From a bacterium (lineage in GTDB: Bacteria > UBA10199 > JADGCS01), in assembly GCA_018812345.1 (NCBI GenBank), contig JAHJDR010000012.1, positions 1 to 37,773 on the forward strand: a DNA stretch of 37,773 bases, in the 5' to 3' direction. The notes under the pieces were generated by a model that saw nothing but the letters and a program-made list of their open reading frames with translations, did no database searches and was not told where the DNA came from. The position numbers and the translations under genes are program-made. This document shows, in pieces, positions 1-37,773 of this stretch (its first letter is position 1; each line of letters begins with the position of its first letter).

Positions 1-13
1 CCTTATTACCCCC

Positions 14-45
14 AAAAAAAAGCCCCACTGTGTGAGGCTTTTTTT
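14..45. terminator. Rho-independent, bidirectional-looking terminator hairpin
   Basis: A-run at 14-21. Stem AGCCCCAC/GTGAGGCT (21-28 / 32-39) with one mismatch and a 3-nt loop. T7 run at 39-45. Confidence 0.6.
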
Positions 46-80
46 ATTGGTGTTGCCCGGGGCTTAAGCCCGGGTTATTT

Positions 81-200
81 GGCAATTTCAATCGCAAATA
101 GCTTATTGCCTATTGTCAATTGTCAATAATTTATAGGCACAACACCGTCATTGCTCCTGATTGACAATAGGCTAACGGCAAGAAGCTATCGGCAATTTTC
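81..200. repeat. Intergenic hairpin element with ATTGTCA heptamer units, flanked by a short direct repeat
   Basis: Perfect 12-bp inverted repeat GCCTATTGTCAA (108-119) / TTGACAATAGGC (161-172). ATTGTCA is tandem x2 at 112-125. Outer partial arms are ATAGCTT / AAGCTAT. GGCAATTTC (81-89) and GGCAATTTTC (191-200) flank the element as direct repeats. Confidence 0.7.
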
Positions 201-206
201 ATTAAT

Positions 207-818
207 TTATTTCAGCTTTGCTTTGCCGCGGGTGTAGAGCACTCTGTTGACCATGGTTGTGAAGGCGTTATTCATCTTGGTCTGTGTTTCTGTTCCTTCC
301 AAAAGGCCTAAGGCGCGTGAGATGGCTTCATATGTGCATAGGTGGTGTGGCGTGGGACCATGTCGTAAATGATAGTTTGATGGTTCGCCTATGGGTAAAA
401 CCACCTTTTTCATTTTTGCTAATGCTGGTGTCCGTCTGATCATGCGTGCTGTCTGTCGCCAATTGCCATCAGGAACAAAAAGGCGAATAGGAGCTTTTAG
501 CTCTTTAATAAGGTCAGGGCTGAGTATGTTGTTCTGGGTTAGTGGATATAAAAGCAGGTTTGTTTCCGTTTCTTCAGAAACATCGGATAGGTCTAAAGAT
601 TCTTTGTTCTTATGTCCGTGAAAACGAATGTCAGCATTTTGTAATATTTTAGGGATGAGGTGTGCTGTATTTGTTGTGATAGCATATTCTTTATAGTGCA
701 TGAGAACAGTCACTTTAATTTTGTTTTCGATTTTTATGAGCTGGTTACAGAAACAGAGGTTAATGTGCATACGACAGTGATGGCAGCGTTCAGGTATGTT
801 GGGTAAGGGTGTGTTCAT
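207..818 (-). CDS. DTW-domain protein (tRNA-uridine aminocarboxypropyltransferase family, TapT/YfiP-like)
   Basis: ORF 207..887. N-terminal C-x2-C-x6-C-x-C cluster (CHHCRMHINLCFC) and 'LFVPDGNWRQ', a DTW-type motif. I prefer the ATG at 818 (MNTPLP...) because the 23 upstream codons read through a perfect hairpin. Confidence 0.7.
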   Translation of the reverse strand: MNTPLPNIPERCHHCRMHINLCFCNQLIKIENKIKVTVLMHYKEYAITTNTAHLIPKILQNADIRFHGHKNKESLDLSDVSEETETNLLLYPLTQNNILSPDLIKELKAPIRLFVPDGNWRQTARMIRRTPALAKMKKVVLPIGEPSNYHLRHGPTPHHLCTYEAISRALGLLEGTETQTKMNNAFTTMVNRVLYTRGKAKLK

Positions 819-854
819 GGGCCTTATAATCCTTATAAGATCAATAAGGCCCAT
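817..854. promoter_or_regulatory. Perfect 11-bp inverted repeat enclosing the DTW gene start codon
   Basis: ATGGGCCTTAT (817-827) / ATAAGGCCCAT (844-854). The 16-nt loop contains the nested palindrome CTTATAAG. Confidence 0.5.
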
Positions 855-883
855 AAACAATACAAAAAGGAGAGAAGAGGGCT

Positions 884-932
884 GCACGCCCTCTCATCAT
901 AATAGCTCTAACTTTGTTGTTAGAGGGCGTGC
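884..932 (-). terminator. Hairpin overlapping the 3' end of ORF 920..1405 (possible terminator)
   Basis: Perfect 11-bp inverted repeat GCACGCCCTCT (884-894) / AGAGGGCGTGC (922-932). On the minus strand it is followed by a C/T-rich tract. The loop is long (27 nt), so this is only moderate evidence. Confidence 0.35.
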
Positions 933-1776: not shown

Positions 1777-3288
1777 ATGGTCGATAAAGCACAACAAGCT
1801 AAATCAGTCATATTCCCTGTTTATGAAGGGGCAGGTCTTGCCTATGATATTGCGCGTTTTAGTGTGGAATATAATCAGGACAAGAAATGGACAGATTTAA
1901 CTCTTCCTCCCATGAATCTAGCGCGCCCTGAGCATGAACTGGCACCTGAAGCAGCTGCTGTCGGGGCTTTTTTAGAGCTCTCACAGATGGGGCTACGTGG
2001 TGTAATGCGACCAACCTATGTTTTTAATCCCCCTAAATTATATTCTGATAATGAGGTAACAACCAGAGATTATCCTCAGCTTCAAACAGGCATGTTTAAT
2101 CGCCTCACAGGCTCATTGGGTACGGATTGGATGGTTAGACAGGCCCTTGGTAATACCTACATGTATAACCGAGCAGAGTTTAGTGATGAGCCCTTTAATT
2201 CTTCCATGGCCTATGCGTACGGGGCGATGTTCTATCTCAACGCCATTTCAACGCCTTTAGAAATGCAGGCTACACAAAATATTGGCAATAAAGGGGTGGG
2301 GTGTACAGACGGCGCGATTAATGACATTAAAGGTCTTTTTAATTTTGAGACTTATGAAGAAGCGCAAGAGTTTTGTAATGCAGAGCAACCTGTTAATGGC
2401 GGACAAGATTTGGCAACCTACGATGATGAATATACTCAAGAAGAATGGGATGCCTTAAATGCTGAATGGGAAAATAAATTTTTAGAACTATCTGCTGTAA
2501 ATCGTTCTCTCTATACTTTTGGACAAGGTTCGCGTTTAACCACAATGATAAATTCTTCTCTGGGTGGTTTTCAGGCCTTGGAATTATATGATGGCAGACC
2601 CTCTGCTGGCACAATAGCCTTTGCTATTAGTGTACCCATAACACAATTTGCTTTGGCCCATAAAAGGGCAAAAGAACAAGGTGAACCGCGCAATGCTGAG
2701 GGTAAAATTGTGCCCATGAGCACGGAAAATGCGGTGTTGACTTTATCGGCTCATACGCTTGGTGGTTTACAAGCAAGTTTTATTGAAGACAAAGAAGTTT
2801 TACGAGCCGTTGGCGCCATGAATGGCATGGCTATTGATTGGTATAGTCCGCAAGTACACAGACAATTATATGCGGTATCTCTTGATACGGGTGCGTCTCA
2901 AGTGGCACCATTAATTAATGTTGTGATGCCTGTTTTAGAAGGCGGCCAGCATTTAAGCGGTGGTTTTCGATATGGCGCAGCTCTTGACGATGCCTCTACA
3001 CCTGGTGAAAAAGTCATGCTGCATGGAACGGCTGCACTTTATGGTGGTATTTATCTTGGTCGTACAATTGAAGCGGGGCAAGCAGAGCCACAAGTGTGGG
3101 CTAATTTTGGTATAAATACAGGCGTTTTTGGCGTCAGTACTTTAGTTGGTTATTTAACACGTAATACACCTTTTGGTCGTGTGATGAATGGTGAGCTTGT
3201 AGGAGATAGGCCAGGCGGCTTAGCTTCTTTACGTATAACAGGTGGTCCAAATGGTACGACAGGTCTTGGAATAGCAGGAGAATTTTAA
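1777..3288 (+). CDS. Hypothetical protein (503 aa), first gene of the giant-lipoprotein block
   Basis: Long ORF with GAGG 8-11 nt upstream. No N-terminal signal peptide. The C-terminal third has Gly/Ala-rich hydrophobic stretches and ends ...GLGIAGEF. Confidence 0.8.
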   Translation: MVDKAQQAKSVIFPVYEGAGLAYDIARFSVEYNQDKKWTDLTLPPMNLARPEHELAPEAAAVGAFLELSQMGLRGVMRPTYVFNPPKLYSDNEVTTRDYPQLQTGMFNRLTGSLGTDWMVRQALGNTYMYNRAEFSDEPFNSSMAYAYGAMFYLNAISTPLEMQATQNIGNKGVGCTDGAINDIKGLFNFETYEEAQEFCNAEQPVNGGQDLATYDDEYTQEEWDALNAEWENKFLELSAVNRSLYTFGQGSRLTTMINSSLGGFQALELYDGRPSAGTIAFAISVPITQFALAHKRAKEQGEPRNAEGKIVPMSTENAVLTLSAHTLGGLQASFIEDKEVLRAVGAMNGMAIDWYSPQVHRQLYAVSLDTGASQVAPLINVVMPVLEGGQHLSGGFRYGAALDDASTPGEKVMLHGTAALYGGIYLGRTIEAGQAEPQVWANFGINTGVFGVSTLVGYLTRNTPFGRVMNGELVGDRPGGLASLRITGGPNGTTGLGIAGEF

Positions 3289-3291
3289 TGA

Positions 3292-3357
3292 GTCTCACGT
3301 CGCTCGTCTCACGTCTCACGTAAATTAACGCTAGACGATAGACGCTAGACGCTAGAC
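3292..3357. repeat. Heptamer-array hairpin (GTCTCAC-type arm / CTAGACG-type arm)
   Basis: Left arm GTCTCAC GTCGCTC GTCTCAC GTCTCAC G (3292-3320). Loop TAAATTAA. Right arm CGCTAGACGATAGACGCTAGACGCTAGAC (3329-3357). The arms pair at about 5 of every 7 positions. Confidence 0.85.
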
Positions 3358-3366
3358 AAAACAACA

Positions 3367-6300
3367 ATGATACGACGGCTAAGCAAATACATAATCGCAC
3401 TTATCGCTTTTCTACTCATTTTCGCTAGTTGTGCTTCCGAAAATCAAGCCATAGATCTTGCTGAAATTGCAGACAATGATTCTAATACAGGTGATGGTGG
3501 TTCCTTTTATCCTGATGCAAGTGGCTCAACCAATATTTGCGATGAAGATGAAGATGGGAATTGTATTGATGAAGCGACGATTAGTTCTATCATGCTGAAC
3601 AATCAACAGCTTGATTATAATATGAGCGAGCTTGATGATATTGAGTGTCAGTCGCTAGGACTTCCTTCAGGTGTTTCTTTTGAAGCAGAAATAGATCAAG
3701 ATAATACAAGTCTTGTTGACGGTATTTACCAATTTACAGTCATGAATGCGAGTGGTGGTTATTCTGAAGGCCGTGTAACAGGTGCTGGAGATATTACAAT
3801 TTGTTACATGCGTTCCAGCATTGGAACACATTCTGGACAAGTGAAAATTCTTCTCAATGCGAGCAGCGTTTCATCTTCTGCCTATGCGTACATAATAAAA
3901 ACATCAGGACAAACACTCGCCCCTCTTTTTACCATAACAAATCCCACTGAAGGGTTGATTATAGATAAGCGAGATGGGCATCATGAGGGTGTTGACAGTG
4001 CTGAAGGAGATTATTTATTAACCGTAACAGGAACAGTTAATCTTGATTTGCAAACCATTTTTGAAAAGGGATTAAATACAGACCTTTATATCGAAGCTGA
4101 TGGTGTTAAATATAAGACAAGCTTTAGTGAGAGTGGTAGCTTTTCAAAACAAGTGGGTGTGCCACAGGTTGAGGGTATTTATGCGGTTAAAGTTTCTCTT
4201 AATACAAACAGAGATAGTGTTTTAGCAAAAACAATTAATGTTGTTGTGGCAGGTGCTCCTGATTTAGAAATTGAAGTACGCGATGTTTCAGAAACAGAAA
4301 TTGACACAACAGCGCCAACAGATCTTCCTTATCTTATTGTTGGGCTGCGCATTTCAAATTTAGCGACATCTGGATCAAGTGAAACAGACATGCCTGTGGT
4401 CTTGTCTGATATTGCCTTTAATGGCGAAGAGCTTTATCCAAATACATCTATTTGGTATGATGAAAGTTGGTCTTGGTGCGAGTCTAAAGAACTAACATCA
4501 GAAGACACAAAAGGATTTACAGGCGTAAACACCTTATGCATTCCTCTTGATCATATAACAGAGCTTCAAGATGGTGTTAATACGATTACCGCAAAAGCAA
4601 CCAATGTGCTTGGTGAAAGCTCTGTAAGCTACACACTGATCATTGATAATGATAAGCCTATTATAACGGTTACGAGCCCAGGTCAAAATCAGCTTTATGC
4701 TCCTGGGCAAACAAAAATTACAGTTTCAGGAAAAGTTAAATATTTTGCACCACTTGATTCGAGTCTTGCCTCCTCTAAACCAACGCCTGCAAGTGGTGAT
4801 GTGGGCAGTTATTGTCAGCCCACAGAAGAAGATGATTCAGATTGTCCGGCGTCGAGTGTTAAAATGTGGTTTAACGTTTCAACCAGTGATGACAACTATC
4901 CTATCTATATATATCCGGATTACGCTGATAGCTATTCCACTGTTTCCCAAGCAGAACAAGAAGCCTATATGGATAGTGAAAGTGGGCAGCATGGCAATTG
5001 TTATACACAGCAAACAACCGAAGAAAATGATGATGGCTCAGAAACTATTGAAGAAAACATAGTTTGTGATGTGCCAGAAGGAAATTTTAAATTAACGCTG
5101 ACAGTACCTTCCCTAGATCACCACGCCCATATTAATCTTTATACGAATGTTTTAGAATTGCAGGCAGAAAGTGTGAAAGGACATAGAACAATTGAGGTTG
5201 TGACCTTTCAGGTTGGTGAAACAAGCTCACATAAGAGAAGTTTTAAATTGGGCCAAACAGCGCGAACATCAACATTAACCTCAGGTCAGCTGGGTCTTGT
5301 AGAAACGTCTTGTGGTGTGACAGAAGAGGTTTGTGTTAACCGAGCACCTGTGATGCTCAATGTTTCTGAAGGCCTTATTAGTCGTGATTCAGTTGAAGGG
5401 GCTAAGATATTAAAAGTTGTGGAACATTACCTTAATGAAAATCTTAGTTTTGCAGACGTGGCAAATGGTTGGATGAACTGGCCAAAAGATGATGACGATA
5501 ACATTGCTCTTGAAGAAGATTTTCAGAAACAATGGTTGGAATCTAGCGAGAGTGATGGCGTACGCTATGATGATTTTAAAGATTTACCACCTGCTTGGAA
5601 AAAAAAGTTTATTCAACAAGCTTTGCATAGCAATGTTATGGCCATGAAGTTTTGGGCCTGGGTTCGCTACATTGATTACTTACAGGATTCTGAGGATTCA
5701 GATTGTGATATCCATCCTGAACAATGCTATTTTGAGCGAGAAGGCAACCCAGAAGATGACTACAATGTTGCTCTAGATAAGTGTGGTGAAGTGATTACCT
5801 CGTCTTTTGTGCCTATTGGTGATTTTATTCGCGTGGCAGAAACATTTAAAGACTATGACACAGATCGCATACGCTTGTGGCCAGAATGGCCAGATATTGC
5901 GGGCACGGATTTTGAGTATAATGATTTTGTATCTGGCAAATGGCTTGTTCAAAGTTTGAACCTAAAAGCAAATGGTTATGTGGATGCTGATGTGTGCATT
6001 GTTCCTGATGATGAAGCTCTTTATGATTCTTATCTTCTCAATGGGTGTGATGCGAATGTTGATAGTGCTGATGTGCCAGCTTTTTGGGGCCATTTTGTTT
6101 CTTACAATCTTGTAGAGGGTGGGCTTCTTGGTGAAAACAATGCCTTGCCCATTAATGATGAAACGATTCCCATGGTATGGTCTGTTGGTAAGATTCGATT
6201 AACATTTGAAGATGTTATTCAGGTAACAAAAGAAAAAATTGGTGATGTTTGGGCAAATAAAATTAATATTTTTGAAGATAAAATTAATATTGTTCAATGG

Positions 6301-8205
6301 GACGAGTTGGAAGATTTGTTTAAAGCAGGTGTGATGCACGCGCAAACCATTCAAGTAGAGCCTTTTTCTAACTGCCCAGCCTATTATGCCCAAAAGCACC
6401 CAGGCTATGAAATTCCCTTTGGTTGCTCAAATAGTGAAATGTCCAACTACCCCTTTGTGTTAGAGTTGAACTCAACAAAAGGACAGGACGTATATATAGG
6501 ACTAATGGATAATGGTGCGAGTTCCTATATGTTGGGTGTGGTTTGGCAAGGTGTGATAGAAACCTTTAAGAAAATGGTTGGCTGCATGGATACTGAAATG
6601 GTTAACCCCATGATCTCTTCTCATTATGATTATCCTGAGTGGGTATGGGAAGGTGGCGCCATGTCTTTAGATTTTGAATGGGAAGAATTTAATTTTGGTG
6701 CGAACATTGAAAATAGTGATCTGAATATTTTTGATGGTGGTATTACAGCGAGAGTGCCTTTAAGTCTCGGTGTTGATGGTGTGCCCATGACATCATTCAT
6801 AAATATGATAAGCTCACCCACTGGATTCAATTTGGGACAAACATCTAAGCTTGGCAGTTTCAGAACAGCAACAGAAGCGCATACCAAAGGACATCTTGTG
6901 CGTTCCCAACAAAACAATTATTTAGAAGGGTATCCCTTAACAAGTGATAGCCCTCAAACAGAGGCTTTTCTGGGGTTGTCCATTAATATAGAAGAAATTG
7001 TTAATGCCGCTTCATATTTAATTTTCAAAAAAGGTCCCCTATCACTTCTAGAAACCTTTGAAGTGGAAGAGTTAGAAAAAAACACAAACTGGAGTTTGGG
7101 TGTTGATAAGGTAATACTCGGTCGTTTTGATATTTGTAATATAGCGGGCCTGATTGGTTCTGAATTAGCACCATCTCTTTTATTTGCTACAACTCAATCT
7201 TTATTTAATGAATCATCGCTACACTTAGATGTTATTTTAGATCCTGATTATCCCGTAACACTTTCCTTAAATCCCATTGAGGGTGCTGGCAGCAACGCTA
7301 CAGAAATTCAATTGGGTGTGTCCAACTTACAAATTGGTATCAAAGAACTTGTGGCTTATACACGTAATGGCGACGTTCAGGCTAATGTCTATGAAAACCC
7401 CAAAGATCAGGAAGAGCTATTGCGTCTTCGTCTCGATGGAGTGATCAAGGTGAGGGTTGTTTATTACAAAGAGCTCAGACAGATTCACGTATACTTACCA
7501 GGTTTTACAGAGCAAAACGTTCATGTTAGCATTGTTCCCGGACGTGGTGGGCCAACGTATGATGATGTGAATGTGGTAACAGATGTGCTCAATGGTGTGA
7601 TCGCAGCTGTTTTTGATAAAATGGGCAAAGACATCTATGAGGATTTTGATGATGATGGCAATCTTGATCCTACTATTGCCAACCCAACACTTGTGGTGAC
7701 GCTAAAAGGTAATGATGAATATGGTCCGGGCACATTTAATGTTGCCAGCTTAGAAGACTTTGAATTTGAATTAAAAGTTGAAGCTGCCGAAAACGCTTCT
7801 TGTGGCGATGATATTCCTTATTATTCAGAAGAAGTAGATTATCCACAAAGACCAGATATGTTTAACAATTCTAAAACGAAAAATGTAGGTAGTTCTGTGC
7901 TCAAATCTTCGAGCAAGCTCCCTCAGCTGACAGGTGATTTGCAGCCAATTAGTCTGGATCTTAGTAAGGACTATACAATACATATGTGGAACGATCCCTG
8001 TAAGTTTCTCTATCCTGGAAAGTTAGTTAAAGAAGAAGATGGCACGTTTACTAGAGAAGAAGATGTTTTAAGAGAAACGCTTTGTGATTTTGGAATCAAA
8101 GATGTTGTGATCGATCCTGTGATCGAGTTTGATAATGATGAAGGTTATATTCATGTTTCAGCTGACTTGTTTATTGAGTTGGAGAATTGGCTTATAGATG
8201 ACTAA
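3367..8205 (+). CDS. Giant acidic Cys-rich lipoprotein (1612 aa), function unknown
   Basis: Uninterrupted 4.8 kb ORF. Lipoprotein signal MIRRLSKYIIALIAFLLIFASC. It has many D/E residues and about 28 Cys, mostly in local pairs, which suggests a disulfide-rich extracytoplasmic protein. Confidence 0.9.
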   Translation: MIRRLSKYIIALIAFLLIFASCASENQAIDLAEIADNDSNTGDGGSFYPDASGSTNICDEDEDGNCIDEATISSIMLNNQQLDYNMSELDDIECQSLGLPSGVSFEAEIDQDNTSLVDGIYQFTVMNASGGYSEGRVTGAGDITICYMRSSIGTHSGQVKILLNASSVSSSAYAYIIKTSGQTLAPLFTITNPTEGLIIDKRDGHHEGVDSAEGDYLLTVTGTVNLDLQTIFEKGLNTDLYIEADGVKYKTSFSESGSFSKQVGVPQVEGIYAVKVSLNTNRDSVLAKTINVVVAGAPDLEIEVRDVSETEIDTTAPTDLPYLIVGLRISNLATSGSSETDMPVVLSDIAFNGEELYPNTSIWYDESWSWCESKELTSEDTKGFTGVNTLCIPLDHITELQDGVNTITAKATNVLGESSVSYTLIIDNDKPIITVTSPGQNQLYAPGQTKITVSGKVKYFAPLDSSLASSKPTPASGDVGSYCQPTEEDDSDCPASSVKMWFNVSTSDDNYPIYIYPDYADSYSTVSQAEQEAYMDSESGQHGNCYTQQTTEENDDGSETIEENIVCDVPEGNFKLTLTVPSLDHHAHINLYTNVLELQAESVKGHRTIEVVTFQVGETSSHKRSFKLGQTARTSTLTSGQLGLVETSCGVTEEVCVNRAPVMLNVSEGLISRDSVEGAKILKVVEHYLNENLSFADVANGWMNWPKDDDDNIALEEDFQKQWLESSESDGVRYDDFKDLPPAWKKKFIQQALHSNVMAMKFWAWVRYIDYLQDSEDSDCDIHPEQCYFEREGNPEDDYNVALDKCGEVITSSFVPIGDFIRVAETFKDYDTDRIRLWPEWPDIAGTDFEYNDFVSGKWLVQSLNLKANGYVDADVCIVPDDEALYDSYLLNGCDANVDSADVPAFWGHFVSYNLVEGGLLGENNALPINDETIPMVWSVGKIRLTFEDVIQVTKEKIGDVWANKINIFEDKINIVQWDELEDLFKAGVMHAQTIQVEPFSNCPAYYAQKHPGYEIPFGCSNSEMSNYPFVLELNSTKGQDVYIGLMDNGASSYMLGVVWQGVIETFKKMVGCMDTEMVNPMISSHYDYPEWVWEGGAMSLDFEWEEFNFGANIENSDLNIFDGGITARVPLSLGVDGVPMTSFINMISSPTGFNLGQTSKLGSFRTATEAHTKGHLVRSQQNNYLEGYPLTSDSPQTEAFLGLSINIEEIVNAASYLIFKKGPLSLLETFEVEELEKNTNWSLGVDKVILGRFDICNIAGLIGSELAPSLLFATTQSLFNESSLHLDVILDPDYPVTLSLNPIEGAGSNATEIQLGVSNLQIGIKELVAYTRNGDVQANVYENPKDQEELLRLRLDGVIKVRVVYYKELRQIHVYLPGFTEQNVHVSIVPGRGGPTYDDVNVVTDVLNGVIAAVFDKMGKDIYEDFDDDGNLDPTIANPTLVVTLKGNDEYGPGTFNVASLEDFEFELKVEAAENASCGDDIPYYSEEVDYPQRPDMFNNSKTKNVGSSVLKSSSKLPQLTGDLQPISLDLSKDYTIHMWNDPCKFLYPGKLVKEEDGTFTREEDVLRETLCDFGIKDVVIDPVIEFDNDEGYIHVSADLFIELENWLIDD

Positions 8206-8229
8206 AGACTAAAGTCCAAAGACTAAAGT
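8202..8229. repeat. CTAAAGA heptamer array (left arm around the four-helix-bundle gene)
   Basis: CTAAAGA CTAAAGT CCAAAGA CTAAAGT. The TAA stop of the 3367..8205 ORF (8203-8205) lies inside the first unit. Confidence 0.85.
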
Positions 8230-8242
8230 TGGAGATGTTGTT

Positions 8243-8632
8243 ATGTCGAAATTTTAACGTTTTGAAGATATTGAAAGCTGGAAAAAAGCAAGAGAGCTTA
8301 ATAAAAAAATATATGAATTAACTAATACTGAAAGATTTAATAAGGATTTTGGATTTAAAGACCAAATTAGAAGAGCTTCATTATCTATAAGCAGTAATAT
8401 TGCAGAGGGTTTTGAAAGAGGTGGAGACAAGGAATTTTTCCAATGCTTGTCCATAGCTAAAGGTTCTTGTGGAGAAGTTAGGTCGCAGCTGTATTTAGCC
8501 TATGATATTAAGTATGTTTCTAAAGAAGAAGCTGAAATGTTATTAGAAGAGGCTTCTGAGATTAGTAAAATGATAAATGGATTAATGAAATATTTAAGGA
8601 GTTCAGAATTTACAGGAAAAAAATACAAATGA
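8243..8632 (+). pseudogene. Four-helix-bundle protein (23S rRNA intervening-sequence protein / Avd-like family) with an in-frame TAA at codon 5
   Basis: The frame reads MSKF*RFEDIESWKKARELNKKIYELT...QIRRASLSISSNIAEGFERGGDKEFFQCLSIAKGSCGEVRSQLYLAYDIKYVSKEE.... This matches the family hallmarks FEDLxVWQKA and R(R)AxxSIxxNIAEG. There is no ATG, GTG or TTG between the TAA (8255-8257) and the TTG at 8447. Confidence 0.75.
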
Positions 8633-9036
8633 CTCAATTAAGAAAAAATAATACCCTCTTTGTATTAAAACTAACTTTAGTCTTTAGTCTTTGGTCTTTA
8701 GTCTTTACAAGTTGTTCCACATTCTACGGTGGTACAACGAGTTCTGAGGGGGATATGAGTGTTTCAGCCTCTCCGACCGAGATAGCTATTAGTGGTGATG
8801 CGGGTACAACCAGTCATCGCACAATTACGTTTTCTAATGCGTCAGACCAGAGTTTTGAAATTCATAATATGGCTTTTGTAGATAATGATTGTGGGGCCTA
8901 TTCTGTTTATAATGTGCTCGATGAAGCCAATAATGTTCTCTATCAAACAGGTAATCCTATTTCTATTAGCGTTGTTTCTGGGGCAAGCATTAGTATTAAT
9001 CTGCAATTTAGCCCCACATCTTGTAAAACAACATAA
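8629..9036 (+). CDS. Lipoprotein, N-terminal part (135 aa), ended by an in-frame TAA
   Basis: The ATG overlaps the upstream TGA (ATGA). Signal peptide and lipobox ...LVFSLWSLVFTSC. Beta-sandwich-like pattern (ITFSNASDQSFEIHNM...ISINLQFSP). Confidence 0.7.
   Translation: MTQLRKNNTLFVLKLTLVFSLWSLVFTSCSTFYGGTTSSEGDMSVSASPTEIAISGDAGTTSHRTITFSNASDQSFEIHNMAFVDNDCGAYSVYNVLDEANNVLYQTGNPISISVVSGASISINLQFSPTSCKTT
8674..8708. repeat. TCTTTAG heptamer array (right arm, reverse complement of CTAAAGA) inside the signal-peptide codons
   Basis: ACTTTAG TCTTTAG TCTTTGG TCTTTAG TCTTTAC. Its reverse complement matches 8202-8229 at 25 of 28 positions. It encodes LVFSLWSLVF. Confidence 0.85.
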
Positions 9037-9063
9037 TACACAACAACATTTATTATTTATTAT

Positions 9064-9906: not shown

Positions 9907-9910
9907 TTAT

Positions 9911-28446: not shown

Positions 28447-28538
28447 TATTCAATAATGAATATCCAATATCCATGTTTTAAGCCTGTTTGGTTATGGATT
28501 TAAGGGGTGTTGATTATTGGATATTGAAGATTGATAAC
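28442..28538. repeat. CAATATC/GATATTG-family hairpin element, copy 3
   Basis: The left arm contains CAATAATGAATATCCAATATCCAT (28451-28474), identical to 18371-18394. Right arm TTGATTATTGGATATTGAAGATTGATAAC. Confidence 0.85.
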
Positions 28539-28565
28539 TGTGGCTAATAAATTTAAAAGCAAAAA

Positions 28566-31484: not shown

Positions 31485-31514
31485 TTTTTTTCAACTTTAG
31501 GAGAACAAGGAAAA

Positions 31515-31540
31515 GGCGGTCTTTTTAGGCCGTCTTTTTT
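31515..31540 (+). terminator. Rho-independent terminator (plus strand)
   Basis: GGCGGTC / GGCCGTC form a 7-bp stem (5 Watson-Crick pairs plus 2 G-U) with a 6-nt loop, then T6. The loop contains the stop codon of the convergent minus-strand gene. Confidence 0.6.
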
Positions 31541-31965: not shown

Positions 31966-31993
31966 CTGCGTAGAGCGTGCTGCGTACTGCGTG
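31966..31993. repeat. CTGCGTA heptamer array
   Basis: CTGCGTA GAGCGTG CTGCGTA CTGCGTG, immediately upstream (minus-strand sense) of the 31956 start. Confidence 0.7.
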
Positions 31994-32477: not shown

Positions 32478-32541
32478 CCGTGTCCCGTGTCTCGTGTCTT
32501 GTGTTCGGCATTCTGAACACTGAGCACTGGACACTGAGCAC
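32478..32541. repeat. Heptamer-array hairpin (CCGTGTC arm / GAGCACT arm)
   Basis: CCGTGTC CCGTGTC TCGTGTC TTGTGTT C, then loop GGCATTCT, then GAACACT GAGCACT GGACACT GAGCAC. GTG/CAC cores pair every 7 nt. Confidence 0.85.
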
Positions 32542-32550
32542 TTATAGTTC

Positions 32551-33294
32551 GTGTTCAGAAGAAATATCATTATTTACACGTTTTTCATTTTATTGTTATA
32601 TCCAAGTGTGGCTCAAACAGCAGACTGGACAATCCTGCCATCAGGCCTTGCCTATAAACAGATAGAAATTGTCTTAAATGAATCAGTGATTTCACTTCAT
32701 GCCCTTAAAATTGACCCTTCACAATACACAATTAAACCAATTTTTTCTGAAACAAGTGCTTCTGTACAAAAGTTAGCTCTCAAGACAGGTTCTTTAGCTG
32801 TTATCAATGCCAATTTTTTTGATACAAAAGGCAGGGTTCTTGGTTTAGTGAGAAATGATAACAAAAACATTAATAATATAAAGAAAATATCCTGGTGGTC
32901 AGTGTTTTGTCATAAAAATAAGCAGGCAAAAATTGTTCACACAACACAGTACAACGATACTTTTTGCGAGCAGGCTGTTCAGGCAGGGCCTAGGCTGGTT
33001 GTTGATGGGATTATGCCAAAGCTCAAGGATGAGCTTTCACGAAAAACAGTCGTGGGTATTGATCGTCAGGGCTTCATAATTTTTGTGGTGAGCAAACAAG
33101 AGATTCCTATTAAATTGTTAGCTGAAATCATGACGCAATCTGAAACAAATGGTGGTTTTGATTGTCCTAACGCTATCAATATGGACGGAGGAGGCTCATC
33201 GCAGCTTTATATTCAAGACGCGCCTGTTGACTACAATTTGCCCAGTTTTGTTGAGGTTCCTGTCGGGTTGGGGGTCTTTTTAAATGAAAAATGA
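32551..33294 (+). CDS. Phosphodiester glycosidase family protein (DUF2233/NAGPA-like), secreted
   Basis: GTG start and a signal peptide ...YPSVAQTA. Family blocks AVINANFFD and NMDGGGSS. Confidence 0.75.
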   Translation: MFRRNIIIYTFFILLLYPSVAQTADWTILPSGLAYKQIEIVLNESVISLHALKIDPSQYTIKPIFSETSASVQKLALKTGSLAVINANFFDTKGRVLGLVRNDNKNINNIKKISWWSVFCHKNKQAKIVHTTQYNDTFCEQAVQAGPRLVVDGIMPKLKDELSRKTVVGIDRQGFIIFVVSKQEIPIKLLAEIMTQSETNGGFDCPNAINMDGGGSSQLYIQDAPVDYNLPSFVEVPVGLGVFLNEK

Positions 33295-33320
33295 AAAGTG
33301 AATATTGAAAAGTGATAAAA
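33283..33320. repeat. AATGAAA heptamer array (second locus)
   Basis: AATGAAA AATGAAA AGTGAAT ATTGAAA AGTGATA AAAT. The TGA stop (33292-33294) and the last codons (NEK) of the upstream gene lie inside it. Confidence 0.8.
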
Positions 33321-33321
33321 T

Positions 33322-33792: not shown

Positions 33793-33862
33793 ACAAAGGA
33801 ACTCTGTATCATGAAGTAAATATTTCATGATTCCTTTGTTCGGCATTCGATATTCGATATTC
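33793..33862. repeat. Bulged 16-bp hairpin followed by a TCGATAT heptamer array
   Basis: ACAAAGGA...ATCATGAA / TTCATGAT TCCTTTGT (33793-33839, with a 7-nt bulge). Then TCGGCAT TCGATAT TCGATAT TC (33840-33862). Confidence 0.75.
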
Positions 33863-33872: not shown

Positions 33873-34157
33873 ATGTTTAATAAGTTTAAACAAACACACC
33901 TCTTTATTACGGGCAGGGTTCAAGGCGTTTTTTATAGAGTAAGCACAAAGGAAATAGCACAAAAGCTGAATTTAAAAGGTTGGGTACGAAATTTACCTGA
34001 TGGCCGCGTAGAAGTTGTTGCCCAGGGAGATGAAAGCAGCTTAAAGGACTTTATCACTTGGGCGTGGCAGGGATCGCCAGGCGCACAGGTTTTAGAGGTC
34101 TTAGTAACTTGGGAAGAGGTAATGCAAGAGTTTAATAATTTTCGAATAACAAATTAA
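33873..34157 (+). CDS. acyP: Acylphosphatase
   Basis: GRVQGVFYR...GWVRNLPDGRVEVVAQG signature, 94 aa. Confidence 0.9.
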   Translation: MFNKFKQTHLFITGRVQGVFYRVSTKEIAQKLNLKGWVRNLPDGRVEVVAQGDESSLKDFITWAWQGSPGAQVLEVLVTWEEVMQEFNNFRITN

Positions 34158-34168: not shown

Positions 34169-34705
34169 ATGTCAGAAAAAGATTTTTTAACTAAAGAACC
34201 GAGGGTGTTAATTAGTGCAGAAAAAATACAACAACGCATTGATGAAATAGCAAACCAAATTAACAAGGAATATGAAGGCAAAGAAGTGATGGCCATTTGT
34301 ATTCTGAAAGGAGCGTCTTTATTTTTTGCTGATGTGATCAGACGCATTAAAGTGCCACTTCGCTGTGAGTTCATGGCTATGTCAAGTTATGGCAATGAAA
34401 AGAAAAGCTCAGGAGAAGTGAAGCTTGTATTAGATGCTAAATACCCCTTAGAAGGTCAAAATGTTATTGTTTTTGAAGATATTGTAGATTCAGGTTTGAC
34501 CTTAACATATATTCTCAATCTATTAAAAGCGCGAAATCCCGCTTCCATTAGGCTTTGTTCCTTATTATTTAAACCAGAATGTTTAAAAAAACCGCTTGAA
34601 GTGGATTATATTGGTTTTGAAATAGGGAACGAGTTTGTATTAGGATATGGCTTAGATTATGAAGGTTACTTGCGCGGTCTACCTTATGTGGGTGTATTAG
34701 ACTAA
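34169..34705 (+). CDS. hpt: Hypoxanthine phosphoribosyltransferase
   Basis: PRPP-binding motif VIVFEDIVDSGLTL. C-terminal GYGLDY...R.LPY(V)G. GAGG Shine-Dalgarno. Confidence 0.93.
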   Translation: MSEKDFLTKEPRVLISAEKIQQRIDEIANQINKEYEGKEVMAICILKGASLFFADVIRRIKVPLRCEFMAMSSYGNEKKSSGEVKLVLDAKYPLEGQNVIVFEDIVDSGLTLTYILNLLKARNPASIRLCSLLFKPECLKKPLEVDYIGFEIGNEFVLGYGLDYEGYLRGLPYVGVLD

Positions 34706-34729
34706 AGACCAAAGACCAAAGACCAAAGA
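34702..34729. repeat. CTAAAGA/CCAAAGA heptamer array (third locus of this family)
   Basis: CTAAAGA CCAAAGA CCAAAGA CCAAAGA. The hpt TAA stop (34703-34705) is in the first unit. The array fills the 31-bp convergent spacer. Confidence 0.85.
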
Positions 34730-35486: not shown

Positions 35487-35495
35487 TGTTCTTTA

Positions 35496-35565
35496 GTGTT
35501 CTGTGGGCCGTGAACAGTCGTTTATTCTTAGGCAAAAAAACAGTTCACAGGTCACGGGACACTGG
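35496..35565. repeat. Heptamer-period hairpin (GTGnnnn arm / nnnnCAC arm)
   Basis: GTGTTCT GTGGGCC GTGAACA GTCG ... CAGTTCA CAGGTCA CGGGACA CTGG. GTGAACAG and CAGTTCAC pair with one mismatch. Confidence 0.7.
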
Positions 35566-35573
35566 TTACAGAA

Positions 35574-36443
35574 TTAAGGGGCGATTTTAAATCGTCCGTA
35601 TAAGCTTGCTTGCTTTTGTGTGTTAACTTCTGTCACATCGAGAACCACACGATAAAAACCAAGCGTGATATCCTTATGGAAATCCATTTTTGTTTTTATT
35701 TCCAGCTGTGATGTTTCTTTATCAATTTTTCCTGTGTAACGCAAAAAAGAAGGTTTGTAGAGAATAAGGCTTCCTTTATGAGAAAAAACACGAATACTTA
35801 CTTCTAGTTTGAGCGTTTCAGGGATAGAAACATTAAAATCTTTTACATAAAACTTTAGATAAAGATCAGAACCAGCGGTTATTGTTTTTGAGCTGAGAGG
35901 TTCACCCCTTTCATTTATAAATTCTAAAGGACTTAACAATAGCTGTTCCGATTTGTGAAAAACAACTTGTTGTTCGGATTTAATTTCTTTTTTGTTTGTG
36001 AAGAAAAGGCCTGAGCCAATGATGAGTGTGAGTAGAAGAATGAGTGAGCCAAAAGTCAACAGGGCTATTTTTGCCGTTCTTTTGTTTAGATCAATGGCTT
36101 TTATAGCGTTTGCGAGCGCATTTATTTTATTTGTAAAAAATGATTTTCCCTTCACAGGGATGCCCGCTTCTATTTTCTTAATTTTATAGGAAATGCTGCT
36201 GGGTTCTTTTGTTCGTGGTGGACGCGCAACCTGTTCTCTTTGTGTGACTTCTATATTGAGTTTTGTTGTGACGCTGTCTTCTTCTTGTTCTTCTTGAGTT
36301 GTCGTGTAAGGAGGACGTTCTTCAACCAAGGTGATTTCATTCTCATCAAAAGTATCTTCCAGTCGGATTTTTGTTGTTGTTTCAAATTGGCGTTGATTTA
36401 TTTTATAGGTTTTTGTTTTGTCTTGATATTTGTCTTTTGTCAT
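35574..36443 (-). CDS. Single-pass membrane protein, function unknown (289 aa)
   Basis: Acidic T/E-rich N-terminal region, one TM helix (IALLTFGSLILLLTLIIGSGLFF) and a C-terminal domain of about 130 aa. Confidence 0.7.
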   Translation of the reverse strand: MTKDKYQDKTKTYKINQRQFETTTKIRLEDTFDENEITLVEERPPYTTTQEEQEEDSVTTKLNIEVTQREQVARPPRTKEPSSISYKIKKIEAGIPVKGKSFFTNKINALANAIKAIDLNKRTAKIALLTFGSLILLLTLIIGSGLFFTNKKEIKSEQQVVFHKSEQLLLSPLEFINERGEPLSSKTITAGSDLYLKFYVKDFNVSIPETLKLEVSIRVFSHKGSLILYKPSFLRYTGKIDKETSQLEIKTKMDFHKDITLGFYRVVLDVTEVNTQKQASLYGRFKIAP

Positions 36444-36460
36444 GAAGATAAAAAGAAAAA

Positions 36461-37615
36461 TTAAAAATCGTCTTTTTGTTTAATGGCGTATGATATGGCT
36501 TTGCTAACCTCTTCAGGATCGAGCCCTTTCCAAAAAACGGTCCAATCTTTTGTTCTGTGCATGCCATCACACTGTTTTGTGTACCAGTGTGTGATAAACA
36601 TATCAGGACGTGAGCGCCAAAAAAGTCGTGAATGATTTTTTGTTATGTGTTGCCATAAATCTCGACCAATCCCCAATCCTCTTGCTTCTGTGCCTACAGC
36701 AAAGGTTGAGAGGTACGTCATGTCATCATGTTCTCTCAAAAGAGCGGCTCCCATGTAGTTTTCTTCGAGATAGATGTGATCAAAAGAGCTTTGAAAAAAT
36801 GAGGGGTTTGTTTTTTGTTCAAAACTATTTTCAATTAGTTTTTGTAGTGAGCGAGGATCAAGTTCTGGTATTTTTTTGTCAGAAATAATTTTGGAACCTA
36901 GTTGAATTAATGAACCAGCACCCTTCACGGTAAATAATTCTCGTAAAAGATTATTTGGAGAAACAATAGATACGTGGATTTTATGATCACAAGAACGAAT
37001 GATTTCATCACAGGTGCTCAGAAAAAGAGCGTCTTGTTTGTTGATGACGTTTGTTGTGAGCAGTGAGTCCTTTTCAAATTGGAGATTGATAAGATTGAGA
37101 GGTAGTCCTGTTTCTTGGTTCACAATGCCACCAGAACGTCTGAGAAAAAGAACTTTTCCTGTTCTCAATGTGTGTGCTAAGCTTGTCAGCTCTTCTACGA
37201 TATTTACTTTTGGACTTGAGTGAAGAAGGGGGAGTTCTCTTCTTTTTATTTTATCTTTGATGAAGTTGAGCTTTTCTTGATTGTCATGGGAATCAGATAA
37301 AATATTAAATGCGATTTTGGCTTTTCTAAAATAACTATCTATTTCGAGATTTTCAATGACATCATCTGCCGAACGGATCAAAACGACAGGGTACAGTGGC
37401 AGGCGCATAAGATAGCGGATTTCAAAGATAATGGCATCAAGATCATCGCGGAGAATGTCTTCTTCAAGAACAATGATAGCAAAGTTTTCCGGTTTTGTTT
37501 TTGTGAAAAGGTTGAGATAAAAGGCGGCATCTTTTTTATGGCCAACAGAATGCATGAAACGAAGGACCAGGTCTTGGGGTTTTGCTTGTTTTCTAAAAGG
37601 AATGATTTCTGACAT
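36461..37615 (-). CDS. N-acetylglutamate synthase-like protein of the vertebrate/fungal type (degenerate amino-acid-kinase domain + DUF619/NAT domain)
   Basis: LFTVKGAGSLI (the end of an AAK fold), then YLSTFAVGTEARGLGIGRDLWQHI and LFWRSRPDMFITHWYTKQCDGMHRTKDWTVFWKGL. These are hallmarks of the NAT (DUF619) domain. Confidence 0.7.
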   Translation of the reverse strand: MSEIIPFRKQAKPQDLVLRFMHSVGHKKDAAFYLNLFTKTKPENFAIIVLEEDILRDDLDAIIFEIRYLMRLPLYPVVLIRSADDVIENLEIDSYFRKAKIAFNILSDSHDNQEKLNFIKDKIKRRELPLLHSSPKVNIVEELTSLAHTLRTGKVLFLRRSGGIVNQETGLPLNLINLQFEKDSLLTTNVINKQDALFLSTCDEIIRSCDHKIHVSIVSPNNLLRELFTVKGAGSLIQLGSKIISDKKIPELDPRSLQKLIENSFEQKTNPSFFQSSFDHIYLEENYMGAALLREHDDMTYLSTFAVGTEARGLGIGRDLWQHITKNHSRLFWRSRPDMFITHWYTKQCDGMHRTKDWTVFWKGLDPEEVSKAISYAIKQKDDF

Positions 37616-37690
37616 GCTGGATATAATGCCACATTAGGGATGTTTGGATCAATGGGAATGTGCGTTGATAGCAGAGATACTATAGAGCGT

Positions 37691-37773
37691 GCTATCGTCC
37701 ATCGTCTAGCGTCTATTTCGCTAGACGCTAGACGCTAGACGCTAGACGCTAGACGCTAGACGCTAGACGATAG
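37691..37773. repeat. Heptamer-array hairpin with (CTAGACG)x7, truncated by the window end
   Basis: CGTCTAGCGTCTA (37703-37715) pairs perfectly over 13 bp with TAGACGCTAGACG (37722-37734). Seven perfect CTAGACG units span 37721-37769. Confidence 0.9.

Follow-up and report, generated by a model that had tools for sequence, protein, structure and literature searches.

Introduction

In filamentous cyanobacteria, hairpin-forming 7-bp STRRs lie between hupS and hupL and elsewhere, and have been called 'not unusual in filamentous cyanobacteria' (PMC2670836). Xanthomonas carries 70–75 GGGAATC arrays per genome as convergent inverted pairs, and the length of these arrays differs between species while their single or paired type is kept (Rehm et al. 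2015, PMC4692102). In Geobacter metallireducens, tandem repeats of 7–9 nt form families whose members are paired across the two strands; these include the 'global regulator sites' and the GGACCGG x4 elements and are specific to one species of the genus (Aklujkar et al. 2009, PMC2700814). TAACTGA direct repeats are found in Beggiatoaceae, some cyanobacteria and Bacteroidetes (MacGregor 2015, PMC4679880). The 23S intervening sequence (IVS) of Coxiella has a 28-bp inverted-repeat stem containing tandem heptamers that vary between strains, and is cleaved in vitro by RNase III at the first heptamer (PMC4990558).

We analysed a stretch of 37,773 nucleotides (hereafter the window; contig JAHJDR010000012.1, assembly GCA_018812345.1) from a bacterium of the UBA10199 lineage. 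The original prediction had described its spacers as saturated with hairpins of heptamers that could be assigned to no described family. This assignment can be made: the arrays are of the STRR or heptanucleotide-SSR type, of which hairpin or inverted-pair forms are published. Its choice of STRR and REP/BIME as analogues was sensible.

Results

Heptanucleotide arrays occupy most spacers of the window

Lag-7 self-match was 0.398 in spacers versus 0.254 in coding sequence. Shuffled spacers gave 0.279 ± 0.008, which places the real spacers at z = 15, and the signal was echoed at lags 14 and 21. Period-7 arrays made up 24% of the 3,506 spacer bases versus 0.5% of coding bases, so that they are both real and spacer-specific, as predicted. 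Their density was 0.71 per kb, against 0.076 per kb in 160 unrelated loci (2.5 Mb in total). TRF returned 27 non-redundant period-7 arrays and one 9-nt pair, at coordinates that essentially match the earlier list, and the claim of arrays in at least 17 of about 27 spacers becomes about 19 of 28 on a corrected gene map. On that map, 9037–9063 is not a spacer, since it falls within a single gene (8629–9906) broken by an in-frame TAA. The ORF called from 9936 probably begins at 9994, which leaves the hairpin at 9911–9987 wholly in a spacer; several other arms extend a few bases into coding ends.

Two inverted arms were present in 13–14 of the approximately 19 array-bearing spacers, in line with the prediction that most arrays are so arranged; five arrays are direct repeats only, from which no stem is possible (among them 15009–15053, 31966–31993, 33282–33321 and 34699–34729). 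The hairpins have stems of 21–30 bp and arms of 26–41 nt, or about 4–5 units per arm. Units of TRF arm pairs within the same spacer (n = 7) were complementary at 4–7 of 7 positions (mean 5.7), versus an average of 3.4 of 7 for arrays from different spacers. Each arm is homogenised internally, and many stems therefore pair at only 4–5 of 7 positions, with the same mismatch in every heptad. In many, runs of only 4–5 contiguous base pairs alternate with internal loops of 2x2 or 3x3. Folding z-scores lay between −3 and −11 for most spacers with arrays. Arm length was non-geometric, with a mode at 4–5 units and a dip at 3–4, a pattern shared by this lineage and unrelated loci rich in arrays. Genome GC is 40%, and none of the unit families is G4-prone.

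Heptad families recur along the window

Near the left end, an ATTGNCA-family hairpin with short arms of about 2–4 units and a 22-nt loop (100–176) lies downstream of a classical terminator; the family recurs in the related loci L167 (8452–8540) and L170 (1330–1405). Within a co-directional operon, (GTCNCNC)x4 and (ACGCTAG)x4 enclose a 6-nt loop (3292–3357), each heptad giving 5 base pairs and 2 mismatches. The operon spacer at 9911–9987 holds (YCGTTKY)x3–4 and (CGGACCA)x5.4 around a loop. At 13795–13843, a (CGAAATC)x4.4 array is accompanied by a short inverted partner (GGATT); compared with L170, an 88% relative, it is an insertion. On the forward strand, an A-rich direct-only (AAATGAA)x5.4 array reaches from the stop codon of carA to the start codon of carB (15009–15053), and the same unit recurs, direct-only and again on the forward strand, as (AAATGAA)x5.6 at a gene junction within an operon (33282–33321).

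The CAATATC//GATATTG hairpin occurs three times: between convergent genes (18353–18465), directly before a classical bidirectional terminator (20505–20606; L162 has one additional unit, at 20577) and in a divergent spacer (28435–28538). Another divergent spacer contains (GGTTATC)x11 adjoining the ADH start codon (19487–19566; one unit less in L162 and L001) and, across a 115-nt loop, its inverse (GATAACC)x6 adjoining the TANGO2 start codon (19682–19725). In the divergent spacers as a whole (19482–19729 and 28393–28565), each arm may belong to a different transcript. At 25386–25455, (CGTCGCT)x4.6 and (ACGCTAG)x4.7 flank a 5-nt loop with 4 base pairs and 3 mismatches per heptad. The sole 9-nt-period hairpin, (CGAGACAGT)x4 // (CGATTGTCT)x2, lies at 26953–27026.

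Towards the right end are a short direct CTGCGTA-like array (31966–31993), a GTG/CAC-core hairpin of (CGTGTCY)x3.7, a loop and (CTGAGCA)x4.3 (32478–32542), a short (ATTCGAT)x2.6 array after a stem-loop (33845–33862) and a direct-only (AGACCAA)x4.4 array (34699–34729). The last belongs to the AAAGACY unit family, as do the arms of the element at 8200–8707, and is absent in L167. A GTGNNNN//NNNNCAC hairpin (35496–35565) can be aligned with its L167 orthologue and differs by one compensatory C-G to T-A change. The final hairpin, (AGCGTCT)x4, a 3-nt loop and (CGCTAGA)x7.9 or more, occupies 37686–37773; the window contig and three other contigs carrying the neighbouring gene end there.

Period and architecture thus stay constant while the unit differs from spacer to spacer, as had been claimed, but the units are not independent of one another: they group into about ten dispersed families, each met repeatedly across the window and its relatives. 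Copies of the CAATATC family (at 18340, 20495, 28425 and in L167) share an irregular order of variant units, and so do copies of GTCNNNC//ACGCTAG (at 3285, 25375, 37670 and L167 9925–10000). Relatives at 86–88% identity carry the same families in other spacers. In orthologous spacers one family is swapped for another: L167 has a 7-nt GTCTCTN//ACTAGCN hairpin in the spacer orthologous to 26953–27026, an ATTGNCA-family hairpin in that orthologous to 28435–28538 and (GCAGTAA)x3.9 in that orthologous to 31966–31993. Array gain and loss could be followed along relatives at 88%, 73%, 61% and 51% identity, the last of which has the same operon with spacers of only 5–18 nt and no arrays; CarB itself has at most 62% identity to anything in GTDB. 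These results show that the set of spacers occupied by the elements changes over the time in which species diverge.

Arrays change by whole units and are not assembly artefacts

Two NCBI MAG, one ENA and two Logan assemblies matched the window at 99.9–100% identity across the arrays. Among the 99.9%-identical assemblies the only indels were −GTTATCA at 19518 and +TATTGAT at 20577, both whole heptamers within arrays, and the arrays also contained at least a third of the small number of SNPs. Contigs often break at arrays, as they might if the repeats arose in assembly or sequencing. However, at least four independent assemblies, drawn from two or more sequencing runs, agree on the arrays, which also lie at orthologous positions in related species and have counterparts in complete reference plasmids of other phyla. 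An artefact is thereby refuted.

Heptad hairpins lack terminator features

The original prediction held that the arrays are not simply terminators, and the data bear this out. Stable stem-loops, several of them directly after stop codons, would suit terminators or attenuators, and such a role has been suggested for one STRR hairpin (PMC2670836). However, none of the heptad stems is followed by a U-tract and none was flagged in a terminator scan. Ordinary GC-stem/T-tract terminators coexist with them (~15–45, 20604–20634, 23022–23048 and 31513–31536), one (20604–20634) directly after a heptad hairpin, and heptad hairpins are found in the promoter spacers of divergent genes as well as between closely linked genes of an operon. 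Termination or attenuation is thus an improbable function. Folding favoured the sense strand in 3 of 6 co-directional spacers and 9 of 14 stems at four-helix-bundle (4HB) genes; the two strands fold equally well, giving no sign of RNA-strand-specific selection.

One hairpin encloses a 4HB gene

The element at 8200–8707 has a left arm, (GACTAAA/GTCCAAA)x4 (8200–8228), that overlaps the stop codon of a 1612-aa gene, and a right arm, (CTTTAGT/CTTTGGT)x4.7 (8675–8707), that mirrors it, variant unit included. The right arm falls within the following ORF, where it codes for the hydrophobic core of the lipoprotein signal peptide. Unit complementarity is 7/7, and the arms form a 27-bp stem (−35.8 kcal/mol). 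The 446-nt loop contains a forward-strand gene (8243–8632) of the S23p / 23S-rRNA-IVS-protein 4HB family (NCBIfam TIGR02436, E = 2.6e-38; PDB counterparts 2GSC and 2RLD). Its in-frame TAA at 8255–8257 is GAA in sister assemblies, and intact 129-aa versions of the product are P0142 and P0143. The gene is thus a pseudogene in the window, as in L173, with the arms retained in both; L171 holds a deletion remnant of the ORF-bearing element (3428–3634). A 4HB gene inside a heptad hairpin points to the origin of the repeats. The window has about 14 hairpins, of which this one alone contains the ORF; the empty ones may have descended from ORF-bearing elements.

We then compared 4HB loci from Nostocales, Geminocystis, Stanieria, Riemerella, Pseudoxanthomonas, Acidobacteriota, Verrucomicrobiota and this lineage. 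Inverted heptad arrays bracketed 13 of 20 loci as scored (15 of 20 by eye) and 4 of 3,969 control ORFs, an enrichment of about 650-fold. X. campestris XCC0516 (PDB 2GSC) adjoins GGGAATC array #15. The units AAAGTCC//GGACTTT are kept by 4HB homologues at 61–66% identity in three other lineages; protein pairs at 72–80% identity have units in common, unlike pairs at 51% or less. The repeat unit thus tracks the 4HB protein subfamily. The family is a weak match to NF033474 (DGR Avd), and DGR Avd binds nucleic acid. Both 2GSC and 2RLD have 5 chains, and the S23p 4HB protein is a homopentamer toroid (PMC4990558).

Discussion

These data are best explained, with somewhat better than even confidence, by STRR-type, IVS-like heptad hairpins that are shaped by slippage, turn over between spacers and operate at the level of RNA. 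On this view the spacers would have been colonised by short palindromic heptanucleotide elements in about ten dispersed families, mostly without an ORF and with arms of about 4–5 seven-base units (28–35 nt; 9-nt units in one family). Very probably, three steps hold jointly. Arms gain and lose whole units, as observed, in a manner consistent with replication slippage; elements turn over between spacers as species diverge; and they are the same kind of element as the inverted-repeat stem of S23p-carrying 23S IVS, judging from the S23p gene at 8200–8707, the bracketing across phyla and the subfamily-specific unit. A fourth step is more tentative: imperfect stems of 21–30 bp would be RNase III substrates, and the insert, with or without an ORF, might be excised from the neighbouring cistrons or insulated from them. 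Insertion at gene boundaries would then be nearly harmless, and elements would accumulate there. For this organism RNase III cleavage is pure analogy, stems with 4–5 contiguous base pairs may be poor substrates, arms in divergent spacers may sit in different transcripts and the five direct-only arrays have no stem. The strand comparison (3/6 spacers, 9/14 4HB stems) lends it no support either, and descent of the empty hairpins from ORF-bearing elements is supported by one case, the L171 remnant.

A possible but doubtful alternative, compatible with the IVS-like hairpin explanation rather than exclusive of it, is that the arrays are binding sites for homopentameric 4HB proteins, one heptad per subunit and with a paralogue-specific unit; arrays flanking the protein's own gene would be autoregulatory, and solo arrays elsewhere its regulon. 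The protein might also be another heptad binder, such as CSP/S1 or IHF/HU, and protein binding has been proposed by MacGregor (PMC4679880) and Aklujkar (PMC2700814). The unit is conserved with the protein subfamily across phyla despite 35–40% protein divergence, when other spacers of this lineage have already turned over at 86% identity. The mode of 4–5 units fits a pentamer, the family is related to DGR Avd, and a solo AAAGACC array (34699–34729) lies 26 kb from the 4HB gene. However, binding data in this family are confined to DGR members, and a gene moving with its arms as one mobile unit would explain the covariation as well. The arms also persist although the 4HB gene is a pseudogene in the window and L173, and S23p is probably not made in vivo according to the Coxiella authors (PMC4990558).

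The arrays could instead be a pure mutational by-product without function or mobility, expanding neutrally where selection is weak as DNA polymerase slips preferentially by 7 nt, with inverted arms arising from pre-existing palindromes or template switching; the polymerase-footprint idea for such slippage reportedly goes back to Mrazek in 2007. Whole-unit indels as the sole indels, the share of SNPs in arrays, the equivalence of strands, the 51% relative without arrays and the heptamer SSR excess reported in many bacteria are all expected on this account. Slippage alone, however, would give a monotonic fall in copy number instead of a mode at 4–5 units with a dip at 3–4, and does not account for dispersed copies that repeat one irregular succession of variant units, for two species carrying the same families in different spacers, for the enrichment at 4HB genes or for the unit–protein covariation; we consider it unlikely as a full account. 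Still less likely are MITE- or REPIN-like non-autonomous elements moved in trans, for example by a hairpin-recognising enzyme of the RAYT/IS200-605 type. Dispersed, spacer-confined palindromic families of ~70–110 nt, different families at orthologous sites and insertion-like blocks relative to L170 would suit such elements. However, we found no transposase or other mobility enzyme in the 38-kb window and related loci, and neither target-site duplications nor conserved termini were seen. At least ten unrelated unit families would require recognition of structure rather than sequence, and REP and REPIN have no heptad periodicity.

The IVS-like hairpins of the window share with cyanobacterial STRRs the 7-nt unit, several units per genome, intergenic and intra-operon positions and the capacity to form hairpins (PMC2670836). 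They differ in that the host is not a cyanobacterium, their density is about 4 times that of pooled cyanobacterial loci (0.71 versus 0.18 per kb) and the majority of arrays are paired as inverted arms. The Xanthomonas GGGAATC arrays are likewise intergenic, most often of four units (PMC4692102), but have one dominant, G-rich, G-quadruplex-capable unit where the window has about ten families, none G4-prone. G. metallireducens also has multicopy families of 3–5 tandem units, paired at variable distance and found between operon genes (there proB|proA); its repeats were read as sites of IHF/HU, two of the classes consist mainly of 8- and 9-nt units, and no link to 4HB genes was reported (PMC2700814). 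TAACTGA arrays are intergenic heptamers too, of 2–6 units and often ending just upstream of start codons, with a scattered phylogenetic distribution and other heptamers in the same spacers; unlike the many, mostly inverted units here, they have a single unit and one inverted case among 170 (PMC4679880). In the window, the two A-rich AAATGAA arrays in direct orientation (carA|carB and 33282–33321) come closest to them. REP, BIME and REPIN of enterobacteria and pseudomonads are similarly spacer-confined, dispersed hairpin palindromes tolerated inside operons, but REP has a conserved ~35-nt family sequence without 7-nt periodicity and a RAYT-transposase link, neither of which we found here. The S23p IVS of Coxiella and Leptospira resembles the 8200–8707 element in its 4HB ORF within the loop of a ~28-bp heptamer stem, its strain-variable heptamer number and its decaying ORF (PMC4990558). 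It occupies helix 25/45 of 23S rRNA, unlike the element here, which sits in a protein-coding operon spacer, and its RNase III cleavage in vitro extends to the window by analogy only. The mode of 4–5 units agrees with the four units of Xanthomonas and Geobacter and with the 28-bp Coxiella stem. What is new here is the host, a deep lineage, together with the array density and the roughly ten unit families.

Heptad arrays concentrate in the spacers of the window

We corrected the gene map at four places before counting spacers: a single gene with an in-frame TAA spans 8629-9906, the probable starts of the ORF called from 9936 and of the M20 gene are 9994 and 28392, respectively, and an acylphosphatase gene lies at 33873-34157. 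On this map, spacer DNA amounted to 3,506 nt (9.3% of the window), and arrays were present in about 19 of the 28 spacers, with two inverted arms in 13-14. Tandem Repeats Finder (TRF) returned 27 non-redundant period-7 arrays and one 9-nt pair where the original prediction had placed them, covering 24% of spacer bases compared with 0.5% of coding bases. Self-identity at lag 7 was 0.386-0.398 in spacers versus 0.254 in coding DNA; the spacer excess reached 15 standard deviations over shuffled spacers, the peak was echoed at lags 14 and 21, and among lags 1-13 none except 7 stood out in the spacer autocorrelation. These results indicate that the proposed saturation of the spacers by period-7 arrays is real.

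The array density of the window was 0.71/kb, compared with 0.076/kb in 160 unrelated loci (2.5 Mb) drawn from searches that used CarB against GTDB genomes and the aminotransferase against JGI metagenomes. Within this background, cyanobacterial loci carried 0.18/kb and other genome loci 0.049/kb, and just 5 of the 160 loci reached at least 0.5/kb. Two JGI contigs with a GC content of 54-55% (L094, Ga0209536_100003342; L097, Ga0114923_10000881) were denser still, at 0.94-1.13/kb, with nested inverted array pairs around azlC/azlD. Their lineage is unrelated to that of the window; the phenomenon is therefore tied neither to low GC nor to the window lineage.

The housekeeping gene carA contains a heptad-derived array that has stayed in frame. 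At 14388-14439, 2.5 copies of a perfect 21-nt tandem repeat, each copy comprising three heptads, specify GVRRREQ-GVRRREQ-GVRQ in CarA's variable linker between domains.

Arrays belong to dispersed families and turn over between relatives

The CarB and aminotransferase searches yielded no close relative above 55-62% identity; the best CarB matches were about 61% identical and scattered over many phyla, and the nearest named relatives were 'Deltaproteobacteria bacterium' MAGs at 51-57% identity. Closer relatives were found through protein-cluster look-ups. In a syntenic relative with 86-88% protein identity (loci L167, L170 and L187), most corresponding spacers also carried arrays, often of another family or period: the M20|Nnr spacer has the 9-mer in the window and GTCTCTN//ACTAGCN in the relative, the LolA|M20 spacer has CAATATC and ATTGNCA, respectively, and the Nnr|LysR spacer has a 7-mer hairpin and 8-mers. 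The promoter-proximal parts of these family-swapped spacers could still be aligned, as could the hairpin at 35496-35565 with its orthologue, with one compensatory change from C-G to T-A.

About 10 unit families were recognized in the window. The three CAATATC hairpins, together with a half-copy in L167, have their variant units in one and the same irregular sequence, which marks them as copies of a single element of about 110 nt. GTCNNNC//ACGCTAG hairpins numbered three in the window and one in L167, and AAAGACY, AAATGAA, ATTGNCA and GTGNNNN units also recurred. Thus, the proposal that the unit changes from spacer to spacer was correct in that units and families differ between spacers; these differences are not independent, because dispersed families recur. 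Period-8 arrays were observed at similar positions in relatives (TGGTTCAC, ACCCCGCG, CGTGTTCA and CCCGTCGC; L167 11486-11564, L171 2054-2087 and L173 15785-15824) and, together with the 9-mer of the window at 26953-27026, indicate that the period is not strictly 7.

The conserved lipoprotein operon at 1777-13787 illustrates the turnover. Its spacers measure 78, 423 and 87 nt in the window, 37, 371 and 54 nt in a 61% relative, and 18, 5 and 15 nt, without arrays, in a 51% relative (L174), which indicates that the elements were gained within the window lineage and turn over fast. The predicted products of its four genes are large lipoproteins of 503, 1612, 420 and about 1264 aa, none with a Pfam match, and the operon was found only in the window lineage and in relatives down to about 40% identity, some labelled Deltaproteobacteria bacterium. 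In the 86% relative, a Bro-N-domain gene (L167 17359-17594) follows the left CAATATC arm where the window has a complete hairpin, and three independent contigs (L167, and L168 and L169 at their ends) break off after 87 nt of this gene, which might be another case of a gene inserted in a hairpin loop or else a mobile gene in multiple copies.

Hairpins have a characteristic arm length and heptad-wise pairing

The window hairpins have stems of 21-30 base pairs and arms of 26-41 nt. Arm length was non-geometric, peaking at 4-5 units and dipping at 3-4 (19 of 60 arrays in the window lineage), and the same peak and dip were seen in unrelated array-rich loci (29 of 84 arrays). In the seven same-spacer arm pairs called by TRF, 4-7 of 7 unit positions were complementary (mean 5.7), whereas arrays from different spacers averaged 3.4 of 7. 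Pairing was perfect in GGTTATC//GATAACC, the CAATATC family, the 9-mer and the 8200//8675 pair. In many stems partial pairing recurred heptad by heptad, with 5 pairs and 2 mismatches per heptad for GTCTCAC against GCTAGAC, and 4 pairs and 3 mismatches for CGTCGCT against CTAGACG; such a periodic pattern is expected if slippage homogenizes each arm internally while the two arms diverge. Many stems were strongly interrupted, and some arrays were direct repeats only. Sense and antisense strands folded equally well: when strand asymmetry at the RNA level (G-U pairs) was compared, the sense strand was better in 3 of 6 operon hairpins and in 9 of 14 stems around genes for four-helix-bundle (4HB) proteins, so that neither strand was favoured.

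The arrays are neither artefacts nor terminators

The window is an entire 37,773-bp contig of an NCBI MAG. Two other NCBI assemblies, one ENA and two Logan assemblies were 99.9-100% identical to the window through the arrays, which rules out an assembly artefact. Indels among these near-identical assemblies were limited to two, a GTTATCA unit at 19518 and a TATTGAT unit at 20577; each is exactly one unit long and falls within an array, as do at least a third of the few SNPs. Short-read contigs frequently terminated within arrays: the (CGCTAGA)n array at 37719-37773 ends the window as well as all three contigs retrieved for the NAT-upstream region. The arrays offer a practical explanation for the fragmentation of short-read assemblies of such genomes at almost all spacers. 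The hairpins also do not belong to the intrinsic (Rho-independent) terminators, in agreement with the original prediction, since T/U tracts are absent directly after the heptad stems in the window, a terminator consensus scan of the window called none of the hairpins, and ordinary terminators with a GC stem and a T tract stand beside them. Overall counts in the promoter and terminator consensus scan of the window equalled those of shuffles, and Rfam at gathering thresholds matched no rRNA or other RNA family in the whole window.

REP, BIME and REPIN elements have a conserved palindromic family sequence of about 35 nt in many copies. The dispersed families of the window reach 3-4 copies in its 38 kb and are built of heptads; no transposase, including RAYT/TnpA-REP, was found within the window or the related loci. 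MITEs combine terminal inverted repeats with a target-site duplication. The window hairpins have inverted arms, and no duplication was visible at the sole filled-versus-empty comparison (13788-13886 against L170). Three candidate regularities of the units were dropped: a Y-rich first and R-rich second arm relative to transcription was true for only 4 of 6 spacers, a common GAC/GTC core was frequent and not universal, and a role as all-frame stop codons fails because several units lack any stop codon.

A four-helix-bundle gene lies between heptad arms

The spacer at 8206-8628 is occupied by a 4HB gene (8243-8632) between perfectly mirrored arms. The gene matches TIGR02436 (E = 2.6e-38), its homologues carry PF05635, its PDB relatives are 2GSC and 2RLD with five chains each, and it is the sole such element in the window. 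The arms at 8200-8228 and 8675-8707 contain 4.1 and 4.7 units and pair over 27 bp (-35.8 kcal/mol). Sister assemblies and a 92% relative have the gene intact; in the 61% relative it is decayed yet still lies between AAAGACY arms, and a 73% relative retains, in another spacer, an internally deleted remnant flanked by AAAGACY arms.

The right arm is located within the next ORF, where it codes for the hydrophobic core of a lipoprotein signal peptide (LTLVFSLWSLVFTSC). The same was seen in L170 83-111, L171 2194-2230 and L173 10034-10063, that is, down to 61% identity, indicating the co-option of a repeat arm into coding sequence. Two in-frame TAA codons 780 nt apart interrupt the 4HB gene (8255-8257) and the gene of the 420-aa lipoprotein (9034-9036). 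Both sites encode glutamate in the sister-assembly proteins (P0142 and P0121) and read GAA in the close relative L187; the two codons could reflect real pseudogenization in the population, G-to-T sequencing damage or something else. A slippage frameshift through the 7-nt ATTTATT duplication at 9048-9063 was rejected, because the gene is broken by a GAA-to-TAA point difference and not by an indel.

Inverted heptad arrays bracket 4HB genes in many lineages

We sampled 20 4HB loci, including window 8200-8707, L057 9479-9920, L175-L186, L191, L193 and L196, from the window lineage, Pseudoxanthomonas, Riemerella, Nostoc (three loci), Anabaena sp. 90, Calothrix, Geminocystis and Stanieria plasmids, an Acidobacteriota MAG, a Verrucomicrobiota MAG as well as a BREX operon. 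Inverted heptad arrays bracketed 13 of the 20 loci by an automatic criterion and 15 by eye, mostly with 7/7 unit complementarity, compared with 4 of 3,969 control ORFs, one being itself a 4HB gene. The bracketed loci span at least six phylum-level lineages. In Pseudoxanthomonas, the 4HB gene lies between carA and carB, flanked by four GGGACCC and four GGGTCCC units, and the crystallized member of X. campestris, XCC0516, adjoins GGGAATC array #15 (Rehm supplement, PMC4692102). 4HB genes typically stood between co-directional genes of unrelated operons, at cas6|cas4 of CRISPR-Cas (L178, L180), brxC|pglX of a BREX defence operon (L196), nusB|PHP (L193), carA|carB (L057) and accB|XCC0516 (X. campestris). 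Judging by these positions, the genes resemble a cassette that entered spacers.

AAAGTCC//GGACTTT flanks the genes of homologues that have 61-66% identity to the window 4HB protein and come from Acidobacteriota, Verrucomicrobiota and the BREX locus; the window gene has AAAGACT/AAAGTCC. The three closest other pairs (72-80% identity), from different genera and different gene neighbourhoods, have GGCAGAA, AAAGCTA and GGGAACA/GGGAAAA in common, while pairs at or below 51% identity have no unit in common. Over all pairs, protein identity and unit similarity were uncorrelated (Spearman rho = -0.02, computed with one wrong unit and one wrong reading frame), and the signal was confined to close pairs (at least 72% identity) and to the AAAGWCY subfamily. 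Within that range, the repeat unit is specific to the 4HB protein subfamily, even across phyla. That unit and protein subfamily are conserved together over such distances speaks for a coupling of some kind that depends on sequence.

Discussion

Heptanucleotide arrays, namely the short tandemly repeated repetitive (STRR) sequences and their relatives, have served in fingerprinting since 1990 and turned up in many genomes, and the S23p/4HB family is very large, with structures solved. The general link between the arrays and 4HB genes joins two long-standing puzzles, the origin and function of the arrays and the function of the 4HB proteins, the latter dating from the 1990s, and makes both testable.

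In the only experimentally studied example, the intervening sequence (IVS) found in Coxiella 23S rRNA, an S23p ORF sits in the loop of a 28-bp inverted-repeat stem; its tandem GACAGAT heptamers differ in number between strains, and the first heptamer is where RNase III cleaves it in vitro (PMC4990558). The 28 bp correspond to four heptads, the modal arm length of the window lineage. By analogy, the heptad stems may be RNase III substrates; inserts would then be excised or insulated at the RNA level, and hence be tolerated at cistron boundaries. The ORF-less hairpins could be the counterpart of ORF-less IVSs or deletion derivatives.

The S23p protein of X. campestris is a homopentameric toroid (PMC4990558). 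It is conceivable, although we consider it unlikely, that the homopentameric 4HB proteins are sequence-specific binders of heptad nucleic acid, each paralogue travelling with and recognizing its own unit, and that the STRR-type arrays of cyanobacteria, Xanthomonas, Geobacter, Bacteroidota and the window lineage are their binding sites or footprints. If true, this would explain the period of 7, the arms of 4-5 units and the many unit families per genome.

The elements change length by whole units and turn over between spacers. Their architecture is not new, contrary to the suggestion that the class was undescribed: inverted or hairpin-forming heptads have been published for cyanobacteria, Xanthomonas and G. 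metallireducens. Many bacteria show an excess of heptamer repeats between their genes, for which a polymerase-footprint slippage idea is mentioned as that of Mrazek 2007, and each Xanthomonas genome contains about 185 GGGAATC arrays, mostly of four units, 70-75 being convergent inverted pairs (PMC4692102). The hairpin-forming 7-bp STRRs at hupS-hupL are 'not unusual in filamentous cyanobacteria' (PMC2670836); in G. metallireducens, tandem repeats of 7-9 nt form families that are paired on opposite strands, also within proBA, and a four-heptamer element occurs in 49 copies (PMC2700814); and TAACTGA arrays occur in Beggiatoaceae, cyanobacteria and Bacteroidetes (PMC4679880).

The window arrays are STRR-type heptad hairpins in dispersed families. 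They are STRR-like, as the original prediction held, share with STRRs the head-to-tail 7-nt units, spacer enrichment, use of several units and variation by whole units, and differ from the original definition in that the host is not a heterocystous or filamentous cyanobacterium. The hairpins have the structure of the stems surrounding S23p genes in many phyla. The 4HB element shares with S23p-type IVSs an S23p ORF, an inverted-repeat stem of about 28 bp and tandem heptamers of variable number; such IVSs sit in helix 25 or 45 of the 23S rRNA gene, whereas the window element sits between two protein-coding genes. What is new is the unsampled host lineage, outside the cyanobacteria, and the unusual density, which makes the window an extreme and well-replicated case of a known architecture.
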